The notes: generated by a model from the letters alone, not told the origin. Counted from the stretch's first letter, positions 4,589 to 16,342 are shown. The stretch is 34,119 nucleotides of DNA from Armatimonadota bacterium (GCA_037444405.1 JBBIML010000031.1:1-34119); one strand, 5' to 3'. A program made the numbers and translations.

Positions 4589-6989
4589 ACCATGCCCCAA
4601 GCCAGCAAAACGCACTGATGAGCGAGAGCATTAACCCTGCCTCCCAGTAAGGCGGGCGATAGCGCATCTGCACCTCGTGCGTGCCGGCGGGCACAACAAT
4701 TGCCCGCAAGATGCCCTCCGCATAGAGCAGCGGCGCGGGTCGCCCGTCGATCCACGCCCGCCAGCCAGGTAACAGCGTCTCGCGCACCACCAGCACCGAT
4801 TCGCTGCCGCACGACACGCGAATATGCAACCCGTCGTTGCGCCGCTCGATGCGCTCGATTCGCCCGCCCGATGACTGCATCACACGGTTCAACCCCTCCA
4901 CGCGCACGCGCTGGCACACATCGCCCCGCTCCAGCCGAAACAGGCGCAACGCATCCTCAAAATCGCTCACGGGCACTGCCTGCGACACCACCTGCACGGG
5001 CGCACACGGGGGTTTCAATCGCTCAAATCGCACCTGAGCGTTTTCCAGACGCGCCCTCCAGCCGATGCCCAGCGCCCGGAGCCAGCGTTCAAGGTGAGCG
5101 CGCACCGATGGCGAGCCAGTCTGCGTCGCAATAGAAGCAGTGATGCGCAGGCGTCGCTCGATTCGGCTCACGCGCTGGGGCGCAAGCGGCTCATACGCGC
5201 CCCACACACTAACAGGCAACAGCATCGGCAGGTTCGGAATGCATGCCCCCACCATCTGCGCCGGGCTCGTATTCGCATAGGTGAGATAGGAGATATGGCG
5301 TCGCCAGCCGTCATAGGTTTGCGGATACCACCAGCGTTCGCCAGGGGCGTGCAGCACGCGCTTCGCCTTCGCCCAGCTGCCTGCAGGCGCAACGGGCAAC
5401 GAGCAGTAGACCGTGTAGAGTTGCAGGGGCGCGAAGCCGAGCCACAGCAACAGGGCACGCGAGCGCGGCAGCCGCCATGCGAGCGCGAGCAGTCCCAGCG
5501 ATGCGCCAAGCCAGAGTGCACCCTGCTGCCAGCCGCGTCGCGCCACCTCCAGCATCTGCTCCGCCGACGGCTGGGGATAATCTTCCGCCGCGCGCGGGGT
5601 CAGAAACGCTCGCTGCCATGCAGCACCTGTGCGCGTGTGGGGCGCCATCGCCATCAGCAGGCACAGCCCCACGCCAGCAATCAGCAACCCCAGCCAGAGA
5701 CCCGGCGATACCCCCTCACCCGTACCCTCTCCGCGTAGTTTGGGCATCCTGCCCAAGAAAGCCCCCTCTCCCGTACCCTCTCCCCCGCCGGCGGGGGAGA
5801 GGGGCTTGGTTTCTCCCTCTCCCGCAGCGTCGGGAGAGGGGGTAGGGGGTGAGGGCAACACTCGCCCATAGCCCAGCGCGCTCAGCGCCGTCAGCATCAG
5901 GCAGGCGATTAGCAGCCAGCGAGCCGGATCGTGAAACATGCGCATGCCTGGCAGGTAGTGAAACGCCATCGTGTAAAGCCTGCCGTCCGTGCCCAGCGCG
6001 AGCCAGACCATCAGCAGCGCAATCAGCCCCAGCCCCCAACCCAGCCGGAACTGCCGCCCGCACCCCAGCGCGAAGGGCACCAGCAGCAACGGCACCGTGC
6101 CGATAAACGCCGCCGACTCCCAGTAGTTGCCCTTCGCCACATACAAGCCCATCGGGTTGCCCCACAGGAAGGGATAGAACAGTGTGCCGAGATTGGCGAA
6201 GTACCAGCGGAACCGCTGCGCCTCGCCGAGTGACATCTGATGATAATTGGAGAGCGTGCCGACCGCGCTGGCGGGCAGCCAGTAGAGCGCGCTCAGCCCC
6301 AGCGTTAGCAACCCCGCGCTTAGCAGCCAGCCGAGCGCGCGCCATTTCTGCTGACGCGCTGCACTCTCATCCGCCCACCAGCGCACGCCGATGTAAAGCA
6401 GAGCGCCAAGCGCAATCAGATACGCGCCCTGCGGATGCCCCGCCATCAGGCAGAGCGCACCGATAAGCGCCAGCCAGAGCGTCGAACGCATGCCGGGCTG
6501 CTGCCACACGCGCTCCACCGCCCACAGCACCCACGGATACCAGGCAATCGTCATCAGAAACGGGGGGAACTGCGCCCGTGCAACCACTGCCGTACAGCCC
6601 ATCCAGACGCACGCGCCCCACGCCCGCGCCAGCTCACCACAGCCCAGCGCCCGCAGCCAGAACGCCATCCCCACACCGCTCCAGAGCAGGTGCAACGCCG
6701 TGATGAGGCTCAGCCATCGCTCGGTGGGGAGCCAGTAGAGAAGGGGCGTGGTGGGATAGAATACGCCCATCTGCGGGTTGCCAATCAACGGCTGACCGCC
6801 ATTAATGAAGGGGTTCCAGAAGGGCAGCTCGCCCTTCAGCAGGCAGCGGCGCACGAACTCCCACATCGGGTAGAAATAGATGCCCGCGTCGCCCCAGAAC
6901 AGCTCGCCAGTCAGCAGGCGACCGTGCATCAGCAGCCAGAACAGCCCAATCAGTAGTCCGCTAATCCGCGCTTGACGATGGCTCTTCAC
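4563..6989 (-). CDS. YfhO-like multipass membrane protein (putative GT-C glycosyltransferase) carrying an in-frame repeat insertion
   Basis: LPFWNP...GQPLIGNPQ..VFYP near the N-terminus, many TM segments, C-terminal PGWRAWIDG...VPAGTHEVQMRYRP; start codon uncertain. Confidence 0.7.
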   Translation of the reverse strand: MKSHRQARISGLLIGLFWLLMHGRLLTGELFWGDAGIYFYPMWEFVRRCLLKGELPFWNPFINGGQPLIGNPQMGVFYPTTPLLYWLPTERWLSLITALHLLWSGVGMAFWLRALGCGELARAWGACVWMGCTAVVARAQFPPFLMTIAWYPWVLWAVERVWQQPGMRSTLWLALIGALCLMAGHPQGAYLIALGALLYIGVRWWADESAARQQKWRALGWLLSAGLLTLGLSALYWLPASAVGTLSNYHQMSLGEAQRFRWYFANLGTLFYPFLWGNPMGLYVAKGNYWESAAFIGTVPLLLVPFALGCGRQFRLGWGLGLIALLMVWLALGTDGRLYTMAFHYLPGMRMFHDPARWLLIACLMLTALSALGYGRVLPSPPTPSPDAAGEGETKPLSPAGGGEGTGEGAFLGRMPKLRGEGTGEGVSPGLWLGLLIAGVGLCLLMAMAPHTRTGAAWQRAFLTPRAAEDYPQPSAEQMLEVARRGWQQGALWLGASLGLLALAWRLPRSRALLLWLGFAPLQLYTVYCSLPVAPAGSWAKAKRVLHAPGERWWYPQTYDGWRRHISYLTYANTSPAQMVGACIPNLPMLLPVSVWGAYEPLAPQRVSRIERRLRITASIATQTGSPSVRAHLERWLRALGIGWRARLENAQVRFERLKPPCAPVQVVSQAVPVSDFEDALRLFRLERGDVCQRVRVEGLNRVMQSSGGRIERIERRNDGLHIRVSCGSESVLVVRETLLPGWRAWIDGRPAPLLYAEGILRAIVVPAGTHEVQMRYRPPYWEAGLMLSLISAFCWLGAWFSLQRRRR
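5711..5862. repeat. Composite palindromic element (CCCTCACCC/CCCTCTCCC family) in frame in the YfhO-like gene
   Basis: Perfect 28-bp palindrome CCCTCTCCCCCGCCGGCGGGGGAGAGGG, second hairpin CCCTCTCCCG..CGGGAGAGGG, end GGGGGTGAGGGCAACACT identical to 9930-9947. Confidence 0.85.
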
Positions 6990-7116
6990 GGGGCGGGGTC
7001 AAACGATCCAGTTCATTCTGAAGCCTCGCCATCCGCGCGTGGAGCCACAGCAGGTACGCGAAGATGCCAACCCACACGATGGCGATGCTCACGCTTAAGG
7101 CGATCTGCCAGCTCAT
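6961..7116 (-). CDS. ccmD: CcmD-family heme exporter protein D (51 aa), absent from the ORF track
   Basis: Manual translation MSWQIALSVSIAIVWVGIFAYLLWLHARMARLQNELDRLTPPREEPSSSAD; one TM helix plus charged tail; GGAGG 9 nt before the ATG; follows ccmC. Confidence 0.75.
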   Translation of the reverse strand: MSWQIALSVSIAIVWVGIFAYLLWLHARMARLQNELDRLTPPREEPSSSAD

Positions 7117-7783
7117 GTGCCTGTTCCTCCAGTCGGGTTAGCTGCACGCGCAGCCGATAGAGCGCAACGGCGAGCGCGCTGTAAGTCAGAAAGCCCAGAT
7201 AGATTCCACTGCGGTAGAACCAGTCCAGCCCCTCCTTCTGCGCCAGCACATTGCTTGGATGGAGCGAGCGCTCGGCGATTGCGGGCAGGCGCGGCAACAC
7301 GAAGATCAGGAATGGCACGGTCAGCGCGGCGAACACGGTGTAGCCTGCGCTCAACGACGCCCGCTGACGGTCATCCTCCACCGCCGCCCGCAGCGCAAAA
7401 TACGCCGCATAAATCAGCAACTGAATCAAGATTGTGGTCTGGCGCGGGTCCCAGTGCCACGGCTTGCCCCACTGCTGGCTGGCGAACACCATGCCCGTGA
7501 GCGTGGTGAGAATGCCGAACAGCATCCCGACCTCATTCGCGGCGTTCGCCCGCGCGTCGTCCAGCATGTCGCGCCGTCGCAAATATCGCCAGCCAAAGAA
7601 TCCGCCCATCAGAAAACACAGCACGCAGATAATCGCTGCAGGCACATGGAACAGCACAATCCGCGCCGAGCCAGGGTCCTGAAAGTTTTGCGCAGGCGGC
7701 ACCCAGAAGAAGGCGAGTGCCGTCAGAATCAACATTCCGAATCCCGCAATCCCCAGCGCGATACGCATGATCATGACATTCAC
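7013..7783 (-). CDS. ccmC: Cytochrome c biogenesis heme exporter CcmC (WWD domain)
   Basis: FHVPAA, QWGKPWHWDPRQT, SLHP motifs; about 6 TM segments. Confidence 0.85.
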   Translation of the reverse strand: MNVMIMRIALGIAGFGMLILTALAFFWVPPAQNFQDPGSARIVLFHVPAAIICVLCFLMGGFFGWRYLRRRDMLDDARANAANEVGMLFGILTTLTGMVFASQQWGKPWHWDPRQTTILIQLLIYAAYFALRAAVEDDRQRASLSAGYTVFAALTVPFLIFVLPRLPAIAERSLHPSNVLAQKEGLDWFYRSGIYLGFLTYSALAVALYRLRVQLTRLEEQAHELADRLKREHRHRVGWHLRVPAVAPRADGEASE

Positions 7784-7786
7784 ACC

Positions 7787-8596
7787 TCATTCATCGAGTT
7801 CAACGCCCAGCTCACGCAGGCGTTGTGCCAGCCGTTCCGCCCGCTGGCGTTCCGCTTCGGCTCTGGCGTGTTCGGCTTCGGCTCTGGCGCGCTCCTCTTC
7901 GGCTTGTTGCTGGTACTGTTGCATCAGCTCGGCGTGAGCGGGCACCATCTCACCGTTTTCGCGAAAGAGGCGCAGCCAGCGGTATCGCCGCCCCAGATAG
8001 ACCCCTTCCCAGATGCCCAGCCATGCACCCAGCACCTCGCTCCACAGCCAGCCGCGCTCGTTCGGCTCTATCGGCACATACTCCTCGCCCATCAGCCGAA
8101 AGCCCGCGAAGTCGCGCTCGCCATCGAACCAGAAATATTCGTAGGTGTGGAACACGGTCGCATAGAACTCCTTCTTCTCGGTCTTATCGTAGGCAGCTGT
8201 GGTGGGTGAGAGCAGTTCAATCACCAGGTTCGGCACCTTGCCATCCTCTTCCCATACCGCCCAGTACCTGCGCGGCTTCTGACCGTCCACGCCCTTCACG
8301 ATGAAGAAGTCTGGACCGCGGAAGGCGGTGCGGCTGCCCTTTTTGATGGCGCGCGCCTGTTTGAGGCTGGAGTAGACGAACATATTGGCGGCGCAGAAGA
8401 AGTCGGTGCGCCCCTTCCAGTTCTGGCGCGTCAGCTCCAGCAGCAGCCACATCTGATAGACATGCCACTCGCTTTCTAACGGTTCACCGTCGCTATCGAT
8501 GAGTTTGATATGGGGCAGGCGCGGCGCGGGCACGGCGGGAGTGCGCCTGCGCTTCTTCGGTCTGGTTCTGGCAGAAAGCGTCGCCATTCTGCTCAC
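7787..8596 (-). CDS. Uma2/DUF820-family PD-(D/E)xK endonuclease-like protein
   Basis: ESEWH, GPDFFIV, PNLVIELLSPTT, EYFWFD, and the typical repeated tail ERARAEAEHARAEAERQRAERLAQRLRELG; alternative start at ATG 8587. Confidence 0.85.
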   Translation of the reverse strand: MSRMATLSARTRPKKRRRTPAVPAPRLPHIKLIDSDGEPLESEWHVYQMWLLLELTRQNWKGRTDFFCAANMFVYSSLKQARAIKKGSRTAFRGPDFFIVKGVDGQKPRRYWAVWEEDGKVPNLVIELLSPTTAAYDKTEKKEFYATVFHTYEYFWFDGERDFAGFRLMGEEYVPIEPNERGWLWSEVLGAWLGIWEGVYLGRRYRWLRLFRENGEMVPAHAELMQQYQQQAEEERARAEAEHARAEAERQRAERLAQRLRELGVELDE

Positions 8597-8603
8597 CAGT
8601 CCG

Positions 8604-8611
8604 ATTATACC
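8604..8611 (-). promoter_or_regulatory. Putative -10 element (GGTATAAT) for the Uma2-ccmC-ccmD unit
   Basis: TATAAT 7 nt before GTG 8596, which is leaderless-type spacing. Confidence 0.55.
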
Positions 8612-8661
8612 CGCTCCCCATAGCAGGGGATGCCGTTAGAACGCTGAATCACCTTTGGCAG

Positions 8662-9246
8662 ATGGACACGCTCCAGCAGTGGGACACGCAGGTTTTCTAC
8701 TGGATATTTGAGGGGTTGCGCTCGAACTGGCTCACGCCCCTGATGTTGCTGCTTTCGGAGGGCAACAAATGGTGGACGGTGCGCATCGGGGTGTTGCTGT
8801 TGTGGGCGTGGCTCGTCTGGCGGGGCGGCAAACTGCGTCTGTTCGCGCTGCTGCTGATCCCCGCCCTGATTGTGTCCAACGAGCTGTGCGATTTGTTGAA
8901 GGGGTGGGTGGGTCGGGAGCGTCCCTGCGTGGCGTTGCCCATCGAGCCGCTCACGGGTCGGCTCACCTCGCCCTCGTTTCCATCGGCGCATGCGACGAAC
9001 ATGGCGACGGTGGTGGGGCTGGCAGGCGCGATTGGCGGCTGGCGCGTGGCGATACGCTTGCTGTGGCTGCCCCTGCTGGTGGGGCTATCGCGCGTGTATG
9101 TGGGCGTGCATTACCCCTCCGATGTGCTGTGTAGCTGGCTGATCGGCGCGGCGGTTGGCTCTGGTATCGGCTGGCTCTGGAGTTGGATAACCGCCCGCCG
9201 ACGGTCGATGCCGTCAGTCTCCGATTCAGGCAGTCGTGGCACATAG
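8662..9246 (+). CDS. PAP2-family phosphatase (undecaprenyl-diphosphatase-like)
   Basis: K-x6-RP, PSAH and SRVYVGVHYPSD motifs. Confidence 0.9.
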   Translation: MDTLQQWDTQVFYWIFEGLRSNWLTPLMLLLSEGNKWWTVRIGVLLLWAWLVWRGGKLRLFALLLIPALIVSNELCDLLKGWVGRERPCVALPIEPLTGRLTSPSFPSAHATNMATVVGLAGAIGGWRVAIRLLWLPLLVGLSRVYVGVHYPSDVLCSWLIGAAVGSGIGWLWSWITARRRSMPSVSDSGSRGT

Positions 9247-12200
9247 GGCACCACGCGCGACACGCCGCCCGTCAGCGCGATTCCAATCCACTGCTGGGCG
9301 ACGGCGGTCGTGATGGGGTTGTGCGTCACGATCAGCACCTGCGTGCTTTGCGCCATCTGCTGGAGATGCTCGGCGAAGCGTTGCACATTGCGTCCATCGA
9401 GCGCGGCGTCCACCTCATCCAGCACGCAGAGCGGACTGGGTTTGACATCCATGAAGGCGAACAGCAGGGCGGCGGCGGTCAGCGCGCGCTCGCCGCCAGA
9501 GAGCAGTTCCAGTCGCTGGCGCCGCTTGCCCGGCGGCTGGGCTTCGATCAGCACGCCTGCGCTCAGCGGGTCGCGCACATCGGTCAGGATCAGGTCGGCA
9601 TGCCCGCCTTCAAAGAGCTGCTGGAACCGCTGGCGGAAGGCAACGCGCGCCGCCTCAAAAGTTTCTTCAAACCGCTGGCGTGCGTGGCGGTCGATGTCGC
9701 GCAGGGTGTGTTCGAGCTGCTCACAGGTCTGGAGGAGGTCGTCGCGCTGCTGGGTGAGCGTGGTGATGCGTTCGGTCAGGCGGGCGTACTCGTCGGCGGC
9801 GCCAAGGTTCACCTCGCCCATCGCCTGCACCATTCGGCGCAGCTTCTCAACCGCGGCGCGGGTGACAGGCATGCCCTCACCCCCTGCCCCCTCACCCGCA
9901 CCCTCTCCTGAAGCTTCGGGAGAGGGGATGGGGGTGAGGGCAACACTGTCTCCAAACAGGCGTTGCCACTGCTCGTTAAGTTCGGCGATGCGCACTTCGA
10001 GGCGGGCGGCACGCAGCTCGAGGGCGCGGTCGCGCTCCTGCAGATTCTGAAGAGTCTGCCGATGCTCACGCGCCTGCGCACTGAACTGCAGGCTGTTCTC
10101 CAGATGCTGCTGGCGTTCCGCGCGACGCGCCTCCAACTGCGCCTGAGTGGCTTCGATCTGCTGTAGAAGCGTCTCGCTGTCGTGCTGGAGTCGCTCGCGG
10201 TTCGCCTGAATCTGCGCCTGCTCCTGCTGGACGGCTTGCAGGCGTGCCGCGCGGCTCTGCAGGCGTTGCCGAATCTGTTCCAGCTGCTGCGATTCGCTTT
10301 GCAGGCGAGCGGCGGTCTCTTCCGCTTCGCGCTGGAGCGCCTCGTGTTCGGCTTGCAGGCTGGTGAGGGCTTGCAGGGCAGTGGCGTGCGCCTGCTGGAT
10401 GGCGTCGCGTTCGGTCTGCAGGGCGGCTAAATCGGGCATCGGCTGGGAAGCAAGCTCTGTCGCAATCTGCTGGAGCAGCGCCTGGATGCGGTCGCGCTCC
10501 TGATGCAGCTGGTCGAGCGCGTGTTCGGCACGGGCACGCTCGGCTGCGGCGGCGAGCCGTCGCTGGATGGAATCGTGCAGCGCCTGACGCAGGCTCTCCA
10601 CGCGCTGCCGGGATTCCGCATGCTGCTGGCGCAGGGTGTCCAGCTCGGCTTCCTGTCGGGCATATTCGTGCTGGGCGTCGTGCAGGGCGGTTCGGGCGTC
10701 GTCCAGCTGGCGTTTGAGCGCGAGCATGCTGGCGCGTTCGCTGCCGTGTCTGCCGCCTGTTAGCACCCCGCTGGGCTGAACCAGCTCGCCACTAAGCGTC
10801 ACCATGCGCGGGATTCGCCCGCCAGGCTGGGCGCGGCGCAGGGCTTGTAGGAGGCGGATGGCGTTCTCCAGCGTGTCCACAATCAGCGTGCGGCGCAGCA
10901 GGTGTTGCACCGCGCGTTCGAAGCGCGGCTCATACGCCACCATCTCGGCTGCCCAGCCGAGAACGCCGTCTCCCTCACCCGTACCCTCTCCCCCAGAGGG
11001 GGAGAGGGGTTTAGCAGGCTCTCCCTCGCTCAGGATGTCCAGAGGCAGGAAGGTGAGCCGACCCGATTGGGTGCGGTTGAGCCAGTCGATGGCGGCGCGG
11101 GCTTCGGCTTCGGTGGGCGTGATAATATCGTTCGCGCTGGCGCCCAGCGCGGCTTCAACGGCATGCTGGAGTTCGGGTGGCACGGTCAGGATGCCGCCGA
11201 CGGGATAATATTCGCCCTGCAGTTCGCCCCGTTGCAACGCCTGGAGCAGGCGGCGCACGGCGGGCGACGCGCCCTCACCTGCCTGCAGGCTCGCCGTGAG
11301 CGCCTGTACCCGCGCCTGAAGCTGGCTGATGCGGGCGCTCTGGGCGTTCAACTGCGACTGGCGCGTTTCCAGCTGACGATTCGCCTCCAAATGGTCGGCT
11401 TCTGCCTCGCTCAGTTGCTGGCGGAGCGCATGCTCGTGCGCGAGGGCGGTTTCCAGAGCCTGGGTCGCTCGCTGCAGGCTCGCCTGCGCCACGGGTTCGG
11501 CGTTCTCAATCTCCTGCAAACGCGCCTGCAGAGCGAGCTGTTCACGGCGGCGCTGCTCCCGTTGCGCCTGCGTCTGCAACGCCTGCTGATAGCGGCTCTC
11601 GAAATCCCTGCGAGCCTGCTCCAGCTCGTCCACTCTGGCGCGCGCCTGTTGCAGGCGCGGCAGGTGCTGCTGGAGCGCGGCGCGGGCGGTCTGCAGGCGC
11701 GCCTGCAGCAGGTGGATGGCACGCTCCTGACGGCTCTCTTGCTCGCGGAGTGTGGCGGTCTCCTCCTCAAGGGTCTGCCTCAGCTCCTGCAGGGTGCGCT
11801 CGCGCTCATGCATGGCTTTCAAATCGCCCTGCAGTCGCTCTTCCGCGCTCAGCTGGTTCTGCAGCAGCATCCGCAGGGTTTCCATCTCGGCTTCGAGGCG
11901 GGCGACAATCTGACCTTCCGCTTCTGCCTGATTCTCGCAGAGGGTCAGTTCCTGCTGAACCTGCTCCATCGCCGTGCGCAGTTGCTGGCGTTCGCCGAGC
12001 GTCTGGCGCAGTTGCTGATGGAGCTGGGCGAGTTCTTGCTGGAGCAGCTGGCGCTCCATCTGGCGCAGTTGCTGTTGCAGCTGGCGGTAGAGCAGGGCGC
12101 GCTCCGCTTGCTCGCGCAGGGGTTCGCGCTGGCGCTCCAGCTCGCGCAACACATCCTCCACGCGCTGCAGATGGATTCGGGTTGATTCGAGGTCGCGCAC

Positions 12201-12737
12201 GGTGTCGCGTCGGCGGTGGCGGTAGAAGGCGATGCCCGCCAGCTCTTCGAGCCAGCGGCGTCGCTCTTCGGGTTCGGCGGTCAGGAAGGCTTCAATTTCG
12301 CCCTGCCCGACAATCGCGTAGCCGCCGCGCCCCAGCCCCGTGTTGGCGAACAGCTCCGCCACCTCGCGCAGGCGGGCAGGCGTGCGATTGATCCAGCACT
12401 CCCACTCACCCGAGCGATACAGGCGGCGCGTGATCTGAACCTCGTCCACATCGAGCGGCAGCCAGCGCGACTCGTTATTGAACCAGAGGGCGACCTCCGC
12501 CATGCCGAGCGGCTTCTCGGTGCTGGAGCCGCTGAACAGCACTTCGGTCGGCGTGGCGGCTCGCAGCGAGCGCACGCTGACCTCGCCCAGCGCCCACACA
12601 ATCGCGTCGACGAGGTTGCTCTTGCCGCATCCGTTCGGACCGACCACCGCGACGAGATCGTGGCTGAGTTCGATCTCCACGCGCTGGGCGAAGGTCTTGA
12701 AGCCGTGGATTCGGATTCGTGTCAGCGTCCGTGCCAT
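9111..12737 (-). CDS. smc: Chromosome segregation protein SMC
   Basis: GFKTF, Walker A GPNGCGKSN, long coiled coils, hinge GRLTFLPL, signature LSGGE, Walker B LDEVDAALD. Confidence 0.95.
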   Translation of the reverse strand: MARTLTRIRIHGFKTFAQRVEIELSHDLVAVVGPNGCGKSNLVDAIVWALGEVSVRSLRAATPTEVLFSGSSTEKPLGMAEVALWFNNESRWLPLDVDEVQITRRLYRSGEWECWINRTPARLREVAELFANTGLGRGGYAIVGQGEIEAFLTAEPEERRRWLEELAGIAFYRHRRRDTVRDLESTRIHLQRVEDVLRELERQREPLREQAERALLYRQLQQQLRQMERQLLQQELAQLHQQLRQTLGERQQLRTAMEQVQQELTLCENQAEAEGQIVARLEAEMETLRMLLQNQLSAEERLQGDLKAMHERERTLQELRQTLEEETATLREQESRQERAIHLLQARLQTARAALQQHLPRLQQARARVDELEQARRDFESRYQQALQTQAQREQRRREQLALQARLQEIENAEPVAQASLQRATQALETALAHEHALRQQLSEAEADHLEANRQLETRQSQLNAQSARISQLQARVQALTASLQAGEGASPAVRRLLQALQRGELQGEYYPVGGILTVPPELQHAVEAALGASANDIITPTEAEARAAIDWLNRTQSGRLTFLPLDILSEGEPAKPLSPSGGEGTGEGDGVLGWAAEMVAYEPRFERAVQHLLRRTLIVDTLENAIRLLQALRRAQPGGRIPRMVTLSGELVQPSGVLTGGRHGSERASMLALKRQLDDARTALHDAQHEYARQEAELDTLRQQHAESRQRVESLRQALHDSIQRRLAAAAERARAEHALDQLHQERDRIQALLQQIATELASQPMPDLAALQTERDAIQQAHATALQALTSLQAEHEALQREAEETAARLQSESQQLEQIRQRLQSRAARLQAVQQEQAQIQANRERLQHDSETLLQQIEATQAQLEARRAERQQHLENSLQFSAQAREHRQTLQNLQERDRALELRAARLEVRIAELNEQWQRLFGDSVALTPIPSPEASGEGAGEGAGGEGMPVTRAAVEKLRRMVQAMGEVNLGAADEYARLTERITTLTQQRDDLLQTCEQLEHTLRDIDRHARQRFEETFEAARVAFRQRFQQLFEGGHADLILTDVRDPLSAGVLIEAQPPGKRRQRLELLSGGERALTAAALLFAFMDVKPSPLCVLDEVDAALDGRNVQRFAEHLQQMAQSTQVLIVTHNPITTAVAQQWIGIALTGGVSRVVPYVPRLPESETDGIDRRRAVIQLQSQPIPEPTAAPISQLHSTSEG
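9864..9950. repeat. 87-bp palindromic element in frame in the smc C-terminal coiled-coil region
   Basis: 21-bp imperfect terminal inverted repeats with a 13-bp perfect core (9872-9884/9930-9942) around hairpin CCCTCTCCTGAAGCTTCGGGAGAGGG. Confidence 0.85.
10972..11027. repeat. Palindromic element in frame in the smc hinge region
   Basis: CCCTCACCCGTACCCTCTCCCCCAGAGGGGGAGAGGGG, near-identical to 5762-5804. Confidence 0.8.
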
Positions 12738-12801
12738 CGTTCTGGTATCCTGACAGGGAGTTTCGCGCCTGCTGGCGCGTTTCCTGCAATCTGGGGGATA
12801 A

Positions 12802-12918
12802 GTTGCCCCTCACCCCTACCCCTCTCCCACGCTGTGGGAGAGGGGAGCGACGCGCGCATGCAAAATCCCCTACGCCCGAAGCTGCAGAAGAGGGGACACC
12901 GGGGGTGGGGACACCAAC
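12802..12918. repeat. Intergenic inverted pair of the same palindromic element family
   Basis: GTTGCCCCTCACCCCTA plus a 12-bp stem (12819-12830/12834-12845), then a degenerate inverted copy at 12866-12918. Confidence 0.8.
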
Positions 12919-15193: not shown

Positions 15194-15922
15194 TCAATAT
15201 TTTACCCGAATCAGGCACAGTCCCTGTGGGGGCGCCATCGTGGTGACGCGCCGTCCGCTTTGCAGGCGTTCGTAGAGCGCGTCGGGATGCAGGCGTCCGC
15301 GTCCGACCAGCAGCAGGCTTCCCACGATCAGGCGCACCATACCCCGCAGAAAGCCGCTGCCCTCCAGCTCGATCTGAATGCTGTCGCGCGTGCGTCGCAC
15401 GGCGGTGCGATAGAGCGTGCGGATGGTCGTCTGCTCGTCGGGCGTTTTGATGCTGAAGGCGCGGAAGTCGTGCGTGCCTTCCAGCCGCTGCAACGCCTGC
15501 TGCATCCGTTCGGTGTCGAGCGGATAGGGGTAGTGATAGGCGTAGCGGATGCGCCACACGGACGGGTGCGGGCGCGTGTAGAGCGTGTAGCGATAGAGAC
15601 GGCTGCGGGCGGAATGGCGGGCGTGGAACTCCGGCGACGCCTCCGATGCGCGAAGCACCTTCAGATCGGGTGGCAGCCGCCGATTGAGCGCGGGCACAAG
15701 CCGTTCGGTGGGGATGGGACGAGCGGTGAAGAAGTTGACCACCTGCCCGCGCGCATGCACGCCTGCGTCGGTGCGGCTCGCGCCAATCACCTGCACTGGC
15801 TCCTTCAGAAGCGCCTGCAGGGCGGTCTCCAGCACGCCCTGCACGGTACGGGCATCTTTCTGGCGGGCGAAACCGTGAAAGTCGGTGCCGTCATACTCCA
15901 CGAGCAGTCGCAGGTTGCGCAT
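15194..15922 (-). CDS. truA: tRNA pseudouridine(38-40) synthase
   Basis: YDGTDFHG, SRTDAGVHA, GTHDFRAF, FLRGMVR. Confidence 0.95.
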   Translation of the reverse strand: MRNLRLLVEYDGTDFHGFARQKDARTVQGVLETALQALLKEPVQVIGASRTDAGVHARGQVVNFFTARPIPTERLVPALNRRLPPDLKVLRASEASPEFHARHSARSRLYRYTLYTRPHPSVWRIRYAYHYPYPLDTERMQQALQRLEGTHDFRAFSIKTPDEQTTIRTLYRTAVRRTRDSIQIELEGSGFLRGMVRLIVGSLLLVGRGRLHPDALYERLQSGRRVTTMAPPQGLCLIRVKY

Positions 15923-16008
15923 CTACTCGACCCGCTCCAACATTCTGCTGGGGCGTGGACGCCCCAGCCACGCAACAGAGTTGCGCATCTACTCGACCAG
16001 CTCCAGCA
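15914..16008. repeat. 29-bp direct duplication (2 mismatches, period 66) flanking a REP-like hairpin
   Basis: GTTGCGCATCTACTCGACC(C/A)GCTCCA(A/G)CA at 15914-15942 and 15980-16008; 10-bp stem at 15947-15956/15959-15968. Confidence 0.9.
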
Positions 16009-16342
16009 CGGCGGTCTCGGCAGCATCGCCGCGTCGGACGCCGATTCGCACGATGCGCGTGTAGCCGCCGTTGCGGTTGCGATAGCGCGGACCGATGTTA
16101 TCGAACAGGTGCTTGACCAGGCTTTCGTCGTTGAGGAATCGTCGCGCCTGGCGCCGTGCATGCAGGCTGTCCTGTTTTGCCAGCGTGATCATGCGTTCGG
16201 CGAGCCGTCGCGCCTCCTTTGCCCGTGGCACCGTGGTCACGATGCGCTCGTTAATCAGCAGGGAGCGCACCAGGTTCCGCAGCATTGCGCGGCGATGGTC
16301 GCTCGCGCGTCCCAGTTTTCGGTAGCCAGCGCCGTGGTTCAT
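15989..16342 (-). CDS. rplQ: 50S ribosomal protein L17
   Basis: [25 protein letters not shown]. Confidence 0.97.

Follow-up and report, generated by a model that had tools for sequence, protein, structure and literature searches.

A short palindromic repeat at four loci of a 34,119-nt contig from an Armatimonadota bacterium (GCA_037444405.1, JBBIML010000031.1:1-34119) almost certainly belongs to the known BoxC / PIT / TM_ECO family, and its in-frame copies within protein-coding genes are almost certainly real. The contig, C31 of a 2.68-Mb draft genome (40 contigs, 62.5% G+C, 98.9% complete; here referred to as G000), is the window of this study. The explanation that we favor as a whole, with a probability of roughly 0.7, combines identity with the BoxC family, survival of those coding copies that leave the host protein intact, and spread without a transposase. 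A preliminary description of the window had instead proposed a family of palindromic mini-elements, non-autonomous and mobilized in trans.

At all four loci the common unit reads CCCTCACCC–linker–CCCTCTCC(C)–loop–(G)GGAGAGGG, as that description had stated. An exact search of the window for the hairpin CCCTCTCC-N(1-24)-GGAGAGGG returned six matches (5764/5776-5803, 5815-5840, 9901-9926, 10984-11008, and 12820-12844), compared with a mean of 0.00 and a maximum of 0 in 100 dinucleotide-preserving shuffles of the window. Each hairpin is adjoined by a CCCTCACCC block, here termed the box, or by its complement GGGTGAGGG; the positions of the boxes and of the extended complements GGGGGTGAGGG are listed in Table 1. 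Folded as single-stranded DNA, the four loci had z-scores of -2.9 to -6.2 relative to shuffled sequences. The first locus lies in a gene for a YfhO-family membrane protein, the next two lie in smc, and the fourth is intergenic, 70 nt upstream of the smc start. Both peptides quoted in the preliminary description appear when the two long minus-strand open reading frames (ORFs) are translated, its YfhO assignment is supported by Pfam (Table 1), and the 18-mer GGGGGTGAGGGCAACACT that it reported at 5845 and 9930 has exactly these two copies genome-wide. Not all of the YfhO insert stems from this family: the peptide AFLGRMPKLR is encoded by a different, GTAG-tagged repeat nested in the array, which displaced the right arm of the truncated unit at 5713..5732. 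The opposite-orientation unit of this locus is translated as PSPPTPSPDAAGEG. At SMC site 2, a single hairpin is flanked on both sides by the third block; this array folds at -30.3 kcal/mol (z -6.2) and is translated as ALTPIPSPEASGEGAGEGAGGEG. Positions 11009-11034, beside SMC site 1, may be the remnant of a second arm, and 12845-12918 is a degenerate continuation of the intergenic unit. Among public runs, the sequence was present in DNA runs of one study only. A contig from X1, which is possibly the source sample itself, matched 5770-12848 with no differences, and contigs from a second sample of the same study (X2) matched 9696-10250 and 10719-11027, likewise with no differences. Since the X2 contigs are identical over the SMC inserts, these are not an assembly artefact of this record.

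The genome-wide census confirmed a multi-copy family, with 118 exact hairpins. The block CCCTCTCCC occurred 158 / 159 times per strand and CCCTCACCC 105 / 96 times, compared with 5-13 times for control 9-mers of the same composition. A loose search (one mismatch per arm, box not required) yielded 226 hairpins and took in some chance in-gene matches (C10:130871, C13:38326). Therefore, we counted only three-block units, defined as a box, a left arm, and a right arm with no more than one mismatch each. By this definition G000 contains 166 oriented units: 55 are fully enclosed by a called gene, 4 touch gene edges, and the other 107 are intergenic. Of 170 hairpin clusters, 120 consist of one hairpin. 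The units fall into type A with linker GTA (57 units) and a long stem CCCTCTCCCCC, type B with linker CCAGC or CCTGC(C) and loop ACGCTGT, and type C with linker CAA, CTA or CGA and a short loop. Inverted heterodimers (A+B or A+C), about 10 nt apart, are common. The orientation of the loop relative to the box is fixed within each subtype, which indicates common descent of the copies rather than mere structural convergence. Recurrent sequences of about 30 nt, ...CATAATATCGACCTGAGTGAAG and ...CATCCTTGCCTCTGG..GGAATCCT, were seen directly beside units (for example at C7:174916, C11:47374, C22:35059, C6:202408, and C16:65486) and may be part of larger composite modules.

Outside genes, the intergenic and edge units fill 78 regions (46 tandem, 24 convergent, 6 divergent, and 2 at contig ends), against a background of 1563 tandem, 348 convergent, and 351 divergent intergenic regions. 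The median distance from the facing stop codon was 13.5 nt, and 39 of the 96 facing distances were ≤10 nt. This placement at gene 3' ends resembles that of repetitive extragenic palindromic (REP) sequences and agrees with the account of Enterobacter sp. 638, as given in the available part of PMC2869309. As a separate observation, 49 paralogous genes across G000 (e.g., C16:19960-20766 and C10:45742-46686) end in dockerin-like repeats, DVNGDGxVDDADLLxVLFNFGxGC*, and triplex-type units often start a few bases from their stop codons.

BoxC/PIT/TM repeats have been known since the 1990s, without an accepted function or spreading mechanism. The motif was first named BoxC and later PIT element, and Holder et al. 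(2015) gave it as the TM_ECO pattern 5'-CCCTCNCCC N3-6 GGGNGAGGG N3 GGGNGAGGG-3' (PMC4666352, main text, to which our citations of this article refer). The 23 copies of E. coli K-12 in Table 1 of that article read CCCTCTCCC-loop-GGGAGAGGG-N3-GGGTGAGGG and their location is described as "always" intergenic, with 3610 copies counted across 262 proteobacterial genomes (PMC4666352). The same text reports that types A and B of E. coli stand in inverted tandem, that the loci are hypervariable and close strains differ strongly in copy number, that a transposase or integrase was not found near the copies, and that the E. coli version forms a stable purine-motif intrastrand triplex in vitro, as seen by circular dichroism and nuclear magnetic resonance (PMC4666352).

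The units of G000 fit this published three-block pattern. They consist of a 9-12-bp G+C-rich hairpin (CCCTCTCC(C)...(G)GGAGAGGG) with the third block, CCCTCACCC / GGGTGAGGG, a few bases off, and depart from the pattern only in their longer loops, which result from the longer stems. The first loop, counted between the 9-mers, often has 7-12 nt, while the second linker has 3 nt in types A and C (GTA, CAA, CTA) and 3-5 nt in type B when the blocks are taken as 10-mers. Types A and B are paired in inverted tandem, as in E. coli. By inspection, GGGTGAGGG placed antiparallel to GGGAGAGGG forms seven G.G, one A.A, and one T.A contacts. The third block on the G-rich strand meets the purine-motif triplet rules (G.GC, A.AT, T.AT) against the purine arm of the hairpin and, judging from the sequence, could thus form an intrastrand triplex by folding back onto the hairpin. 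We found the exact three-block pattern in 67 of 121 genomes of the order, a tally in which the unpublished genome G044 was counted (and only there), while a reversed-pattern control had 0 matches in each of the 121. When one genome per species was scanned, at least 126 stretches showed the exact pattern, and the matches listed include Planctomycetota, Chloroflexota, Cyanobacteria, Bacteroidota, Verrucomicrobiota, Proteobacteria, Actinobacteria, Myxococcota, and others. Hence, the family is already known and very widespread. A new family is not supported, and the caveat in the preliminary description that similar repeats may already be catalogued was well placed. Rfam returned only sub-threshold, microRNA-like hairpin matches for the region, far under the gathering scores. 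Published in-frame copies of the BoxC/TM motif were not found in the open literature and the main text of PMC4666352, the original BoxC/PIT papers lying outside this search; thus it is the in-frame habit, and not the motif, that appears to be undescribed for this family.

The coding copies were assigned with our own codon-usage gene caller, which returned 2302 genes covering 90.6% of the DNA. The 55 coding units are spread over 38 host genes, and 46 of them, in 31 genes, have a well-supported host and lie at least 30 codons from either gene end, which bears out the earlier statement that copies are carried in frame inside core genes. A Pfam match was obtained for 26 of the 29 hosts scanned. 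These include CarB (carbamoyl-phosphate synthase large chain), LigA (NAD-dependent DNA ligase), Mfd, MutL, a UvrD-type helicase, pyruvate kinase, transketolase, an E2 acyltransferase, two Mur ligases, GlnE, a class A penicillin-binding protein, LpxK, ApbE, Lnt, and others; an M16 peptidase gene hosts four units. Many inserts fall between Pfam domains: at residue 598 of LigA, between HHH_2 (ending at 582) and BRCT (starting at 612); at 516 of MutL (489 / 629); at 114-141 of the E2 acyltransferase (75 / 146); at 298 of transketolase (267 / 330); and likewise in Lnt. The inserts of pyruvate kinase, UvrD, and a Mur ligase are located inside a domain match.

A stop codon occurs in only one of the six frames of the unit (GGG TGA GGG), and the other frames encode Pro/Ser/Gly/Glu-rich peptides. 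Consequently, a copy or array with a net length of 3n in a loop or inter-domain linker leaves the protein intact. Among the 35 units whose G-rich strand is coding, 29 are read as GEG, 6 as VR, and 0 in the TGA frame (binomial p = 1e-4); the 20 units with the C-rich strand coding comprise 12 PSP, 5 PH, and 3 LT (p = 0.035). The earlier claim that all coding copies use one frame therefore applies to the 41 of 55 units read as GEG or PSP, but not to those read as VR, PH or LT. Unit density was 2.3 per 100 kb in coding and 42.6 per 100 kb in non-coding DNA, i.e., 19-fold lower in genes, while the share of exact units did not differ (25/55 coding and 55/107 intergenic; p = 0.51). Selection removes coding copies that break the protein, and this filter on frame and position explains the lower coding density, the missing TGA frame, and the excess of GEG and PSP. 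The encoded peptides are probably tolerated as small, polar, and flexible segments placed in loops.

Orthologous genes of relatives show that these inserts are confined to particular lineages. We found smc orthologues in 31 of 31 genomes searched and aligned the 26 full-length proteins, excluding five partial loci (L014, L017, L018, L027, L029). Site 1 was empty in 23 of the 26, the exceptions being G002 with a larger array and G028 and G005 with inserts of their own; site 2 was empty in all except G002 (25/26). The SMC ORF of G002 is open over 1365 aa despite larger arrays at both sites. In the YfhO gene, the congener G001 and nine more distant homologues were empty, and G003 had one independent unit in the same loop. 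Alignments of six further host genes gave the same pattern. At the DNA level, at least one unit was present in 0/8 of eight host genes in G001, 8/8 in G002, 3/8 in G003, 1/7 in G012, and 3/7 in G006; the unit count of G002 was never below that of G000 in these hosts, and the units of G028, G005, and G003 were confirmed in DNA. As orthologues lack the units, the inserts are lineage-specific DNA elements. The empty sites that the preliminary description expected in close relatives thus exist, and what it named as contrary evidence, orthologues that keep the peptides without a DNA palindrome, was not what we observed: the orthologues are without the inserts. A separate feature was noted in the CarB gene of G003 (G003:C106:8957-13633, L265), a single open frame of 1700 aa in which about 1.4 kb lies between the two halves, near residue 477. 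This extra segment may be an intein or another large in-frame insert, and CarB of G001 and G006 has smaller extra segments at the same point.

The comparison with G002 revealed a rapid turnover of the arrays. At about 95% identity, G002 and the window are collinear throughout, except at the four element loci and at an unrelated insert of 66 nt. Each of the four loci is occupied in both genomes, with differing unit numbers and types; the intergenic locus, for example, holds a different and larger array in G002, and the coding differences keep the frame. In total, G000 has 84 exact units, G002 278, G001 14, and G003 15. Many type-A copies of G002 form identical pairs at a spacing of 47-49, 53, 111-114 or 153 nt, which points to local tandem amplification. 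The unrelated 66-nt segment (about 15923-15988, between the genes at 15194-15922 and 15989-16342) is present in G000 and not in G002. It includes the hairpin CTGGGGCGTGGACGCCCCAG, has a 19-nt direct repeat, GTTGCGCATCTACTCGACC, at its borders, and represents a small insertion or duplication of another kind.

We compared 30 loci of G002, representing 26 distinct regions, with G000. About half were occupied in both genomes, three were cleanly empty in G000, and at about ten the flanks mapped apart in G000 or to paralogous genes. At the three filled/empty sites, the genomes differ by a segment of 154-208 nt that consists of 2-3 units plus 10-50 nt of non-unit flank, with junction homologies of none, CCTC (4 nt), and TGAGT (5 nt), respectively. 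No constant target duplication was seen at these three sites, and the differing segment did not end at unit boundaries. Junctions of this kind (n = 3) are not what a fixed-ended element moving by cut-and-paste or copy-and-paste leaves behind. Loci of G002 whose flanks map to different contigs or distant positions of G000 (L195, L196/L197, L205, L211, L216, L217, L218) may represent rearrangements at the repeats.

The structured DNA of the units could provoke replication- or repair-linked template switching, slippage, and ectopic recombination; copying of this kind would grow and shrink arrays at occupied sites and would sometimes move composite blocks to new ones. We give slightly less than even odds to the view that copy number changes mainly by slippage, template switching, and ectopic recombination, without an element-linked transposase. 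A RAYT-like or other unlinked enzyme (see below) is unlikely, and the remainder of the weight on the mechanism of spread goes to unknown processes. Several points weigh against our overall reading. The near-identical units at many unrelated sites look like transposition, and an unlinked, trans-acting enzyme may be at work. The three filled/empty differences are unpolarised, and if they are deletions in G000, these sites are uninformative on insertion. Some of the rearrangement breakpoints at elements could be joins of the draft assemblies. The triplex is without support in vivo, as dimethyl sulfate footprinting was negative and the double-stranded form was a duplex according to the main text of PMC4666352, and therefore the structure-driven step of the proposed spread is hypothetical. 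With regard to the coding copies, the gene calls are not curated, 7 of the 38 host genes are weakly supported or have the unit near a gene end, and the units of a dimer share a frame, so that the frame statistics overstate independence.

If the units were moved by an enzyme, a candidate would be a domesticated HUH Y1 tyrosine transposase acting in trans, similar to the REP-associated tyrosine transposases (RAYTs) of REP/REPIN-type elements. The preliminary description had suggested looking for a transposase or nuclease gene flanked by the repeat. For the DUF559 / Vsr-like nuclease, the 98.9%-complete genome gave no match. The genome does contain a single Y1_Tnp match (C8:179377-179709), in a 260-residue ORF (stop to stop) fused to a Sigma70_r4 domain, and this gene passes the IS200/IS605 model NF033573 (78.9 bits, cut-off 55). 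As expected of vertically inherited RAYTs, the single-copy Y1_Tnp-Sigma70_r4 fusion occurs in 27 of 28 genomes of the family; moreover, like REPINs, the units are short palindromes frequently arranged as inverted dimers, and they lie REP-like near gene 3' ends, with convergent regions enriched (24/348 compared with 6/351 divergent). However, the gene fails the REP_Tyr_transpos model NF047646 (40 bits, cut-off 80), and no CCCTC[AT]CC or GG[AT]GAGGG motif occurs in 177877-181209, i.e., within 1.5 kb of it. By our reading its HUH motif is QVH, which would be a degenerate form. The fusion is found whatever the unit count of a genome: 0 exact units accompany the gene in G007, G008, and G015, whereas G028, a genome with 51 units, gave no Y1_Tnp match at E <= 1e-5. 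In addition, the motif is found in phyla and species for which Holder et al. reported no transposase linked to it (PMC4666352, main text). A more natural substrate would be the second repeat family, a hairpin NTGGGCA-TCC-TGCCCAN that mostly follows GTAG, with 19 copies at ≤2 mismatches (on C8, C12, C26, and other contigs) and one such module inside the SMC site-1 array of G002. This family looks like a GTAG-type REP sensu Di Nocera et al. and is the likelier substrate of the Y1 protein, if that protein has one; the BoxC-like units lack a terminal GTAG/CGTC tag, as the outer flank of their box is variable and GTA occurs only as an internal linker. Taken together, movement by a RAYT-like enzyme is unlikely, and with no DUF559 match, an unlinked Y1_Tnp gene, and no constant duplication at the three sites, the notion of a transposase- or nuclease-mobilized mini-element is not borne out. 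A classical MITE (miniature inverted-repeat transposable element), that is, a deletion derivative of an insertion sequence (IS) with terminal inverted repeats that is moved by the transposase of that IS and creates target-site duplications, is far less plausible still. Full dimers of 80-100 nt do have inverted ends (CCCCTCACCC ... GGGTGAGGGG), but the three unpolarised sites had no constant target duplication and segments not ending at unit ends, single units and odd-numbered arrays are common, and a parent IS with such ends was not seen.

A different kind of explanation is that the elements are kept because they are useful, either as stabilizers or terminators at mRNA 3' ends or, within proteins, as adaptive flexible linkers or length-variable regions. 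The clustering a few bases past stop codons is in line with the terminator role proposed for Enterobacter sp. 638 in the available part of PMC2869309, although earlier tests of PIT elements, as cited in the main text of PMC4666352, found no promoter or terminator activity. In the proteins, coding copies are as intact in DNA as intergenic ones, and the same loops were hit across lineages (YfhO, pyruvate kinase, and MutL in G003; SMC in G028, G005, and G006); yet such repeated hits are equally expected if few loops tolerate insertions, G001 is without units in 8/8 host genes, and array size varies freely between strains that are 95% identical. We consider usefulness somewhat less probable than even the RAYT-like scenario. 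That no DNA element exists at all, and that the PSP...GEG peptides are ordinary low-complexity linkers conserved at the protein level or an assembly artefact, has a negligible probability. The peptides are indeed of low complexity and located in linkers, but this reading is refuted by the 107 copies outside genes, the coding copies in five frames and both orientations, the orthologues without inserts, and the SMC inserts in the second-sample contigs. The combination of BoxC-family identity, selective survival in genes, and transposase-free spread thus remains our preferred account.

Table 1 Repeat units and host genes in the window, and the Y1_Tnp gene of the same genome.
Feature	Position	Strand	Description
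Truncated type-A unit	5713..5732	+	Box CCCTCACCC 5713-5721, linker GTA, left arm CCCTCTCC 5725-5732
Nested second-family repeat	5733..5762	.	GTAG-tagged hairpin TTGGGCA-TCC-TGCCCAA, in-gene translation AFLGRMPKLR
Unit with degenerate box (CCCTCTCCC)	5764..5803	+	Linker GTA, hairpin with 12-bp stem 5776-5803
Opposite-orientation unit	5815..5855	-	Hairpin 5815-5840, linker GGTA, third block GGGGGTGAGGG 5845-5855
SMC site 2 array	9874..9940	.	Extra box 9874-9882, box 9889-9897, linker GCA, hairpin 9901-9926, linker GAT, third block GGGGGTGAGGG 9930-9940
SMC site 1, type-A unit	10972..11008	+	Box 10972-10980, linker GTA, hairpin 10984-11008; translated as PLSPSGGEGTGEG
Intergenic type-B unit	12807..12844	+	Box 12807-12815, linker CTAC, hairpin 12820-12844
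YfhO-family membrane protein gene, 808 aa	4563..6989	-	Host of the first array; Pfam PF09586 YfhO 47 bits, cut-off 28.5
smc gene, 1208 aa	9111..12737	-	Host of two arrays
Y1_Tnp-Sigma70_r4 fusion gene (L001), single copy	G000:C8:179059-179838		IS200-like Y1_Tnp domain fused to a Sigma70_r4 domain

In a broader sense, it is conceivable, if rather speculative, that BoxC/TM is a pan-bacterial, transposase-less form of structured DNA that spreads and resizes by replication- or repair-linked copying and has invaded coding sequence on a large scale in some lineages. If true, it would rapidly produce in-frame length variation in linkers of essential proteins, including those of DNA repair and chromosome maintenance; between G000 and G002, which are about 95% identical, each SMC site differs by dozens of residues. 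The BoxC/PIT/TM literature, in the parts available, treats the repeats as intergenic, and here a third of the units are in frame in housekeeping genes. These coding copies expose a readable selective filter, composed of frame, multiples of three, and position in the fold. With 14, 15, 84, and 278 copies, close relatives provide a natural series in which gains and losses could be dated and the responsible gene or process sought. In practice, the inserts inflate and fragment protein alignments, interrupt short-read assemblies at each copy, and can lead domain annotation astray.

Several known systems resemble the repeats of G000 in part. Rickettsia palindromic elements (RPE) are about 100-150 bp long and are not known outside Rickettsia. 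The units of G000, in contrast, have 35-45 nt, include a third block, and are spread across phyla. The likeness is one of behavior only, that of an in-frame palindromic repeat that leaves the ORF open, and for this function the preliminary description chose a fair precedent: according to the main text of PMC3733652, RPE occur in frame inside ORFs that probably encode functional proteins. The GTAG- and CGTC-tagged REPs of Di Nocera et al. (2013) are closer in their choice of hosts. As described there, they occur within genes as monomers, dimers, and clusters that encode 20-80 extra residues, often in genes for DNA synthesis or repair such as uvrA/B, UvrD, and ligase (PMC3733652, main text), and the hosts in G000 similarly include MutL, UvrD, Mfd, LigA, and SMC. 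However, those REPs carry a terminal tag and their GTAG families are RAYT-linked, whereas the units of G000 have neither, and CCCTC / GGGAG does not occur in the main text of that article (PMC3733652).

REPIN-RAYT systems (Bertels and Rainey 2011) reportedly combine short palindromes arranged as inverted dimers with a single-copy Y1 gene. G000 has both inverted dimers and a single-copy Y1 gene, but no units flank this gene, and its score is below the cut-off of the REP-transposase model. In Enterobacter sp. 638, palindromes of the form CCCTCTCCC-XX(X)-GGGAGAGGG are present in about 100 copies, frequently two or three together at the 3' ends of genes (PMC2869309, available part). They represent the same hairpin as the units of G000, described in that part of the text as putative terminators only, with the third block and coding copies unmentioned (PMC2869309). 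The closest relationship is that to BoxC/PIT/TM_ECO, with which the units of G000 share the blocks CCCTCTCCC / GGGAGAGGG / GGGTGAGGG, the 3-nt second linker, the inverted A+B tandems, hypervariable loci, copy-number differences among close relatives, and the lack of a linked transposase. The stems in G000 are longer (up to 11-12 bp), the loops are lineage-specific, and the host is outside the 262 proteobacterial genomes counted in the main text of PMC4666352. The main difference lies in the location: all 23 of the 23 copies in E. coli K-12 are intergenic, whereas 55 of the 166 units in G000 reside in genes, in frame.

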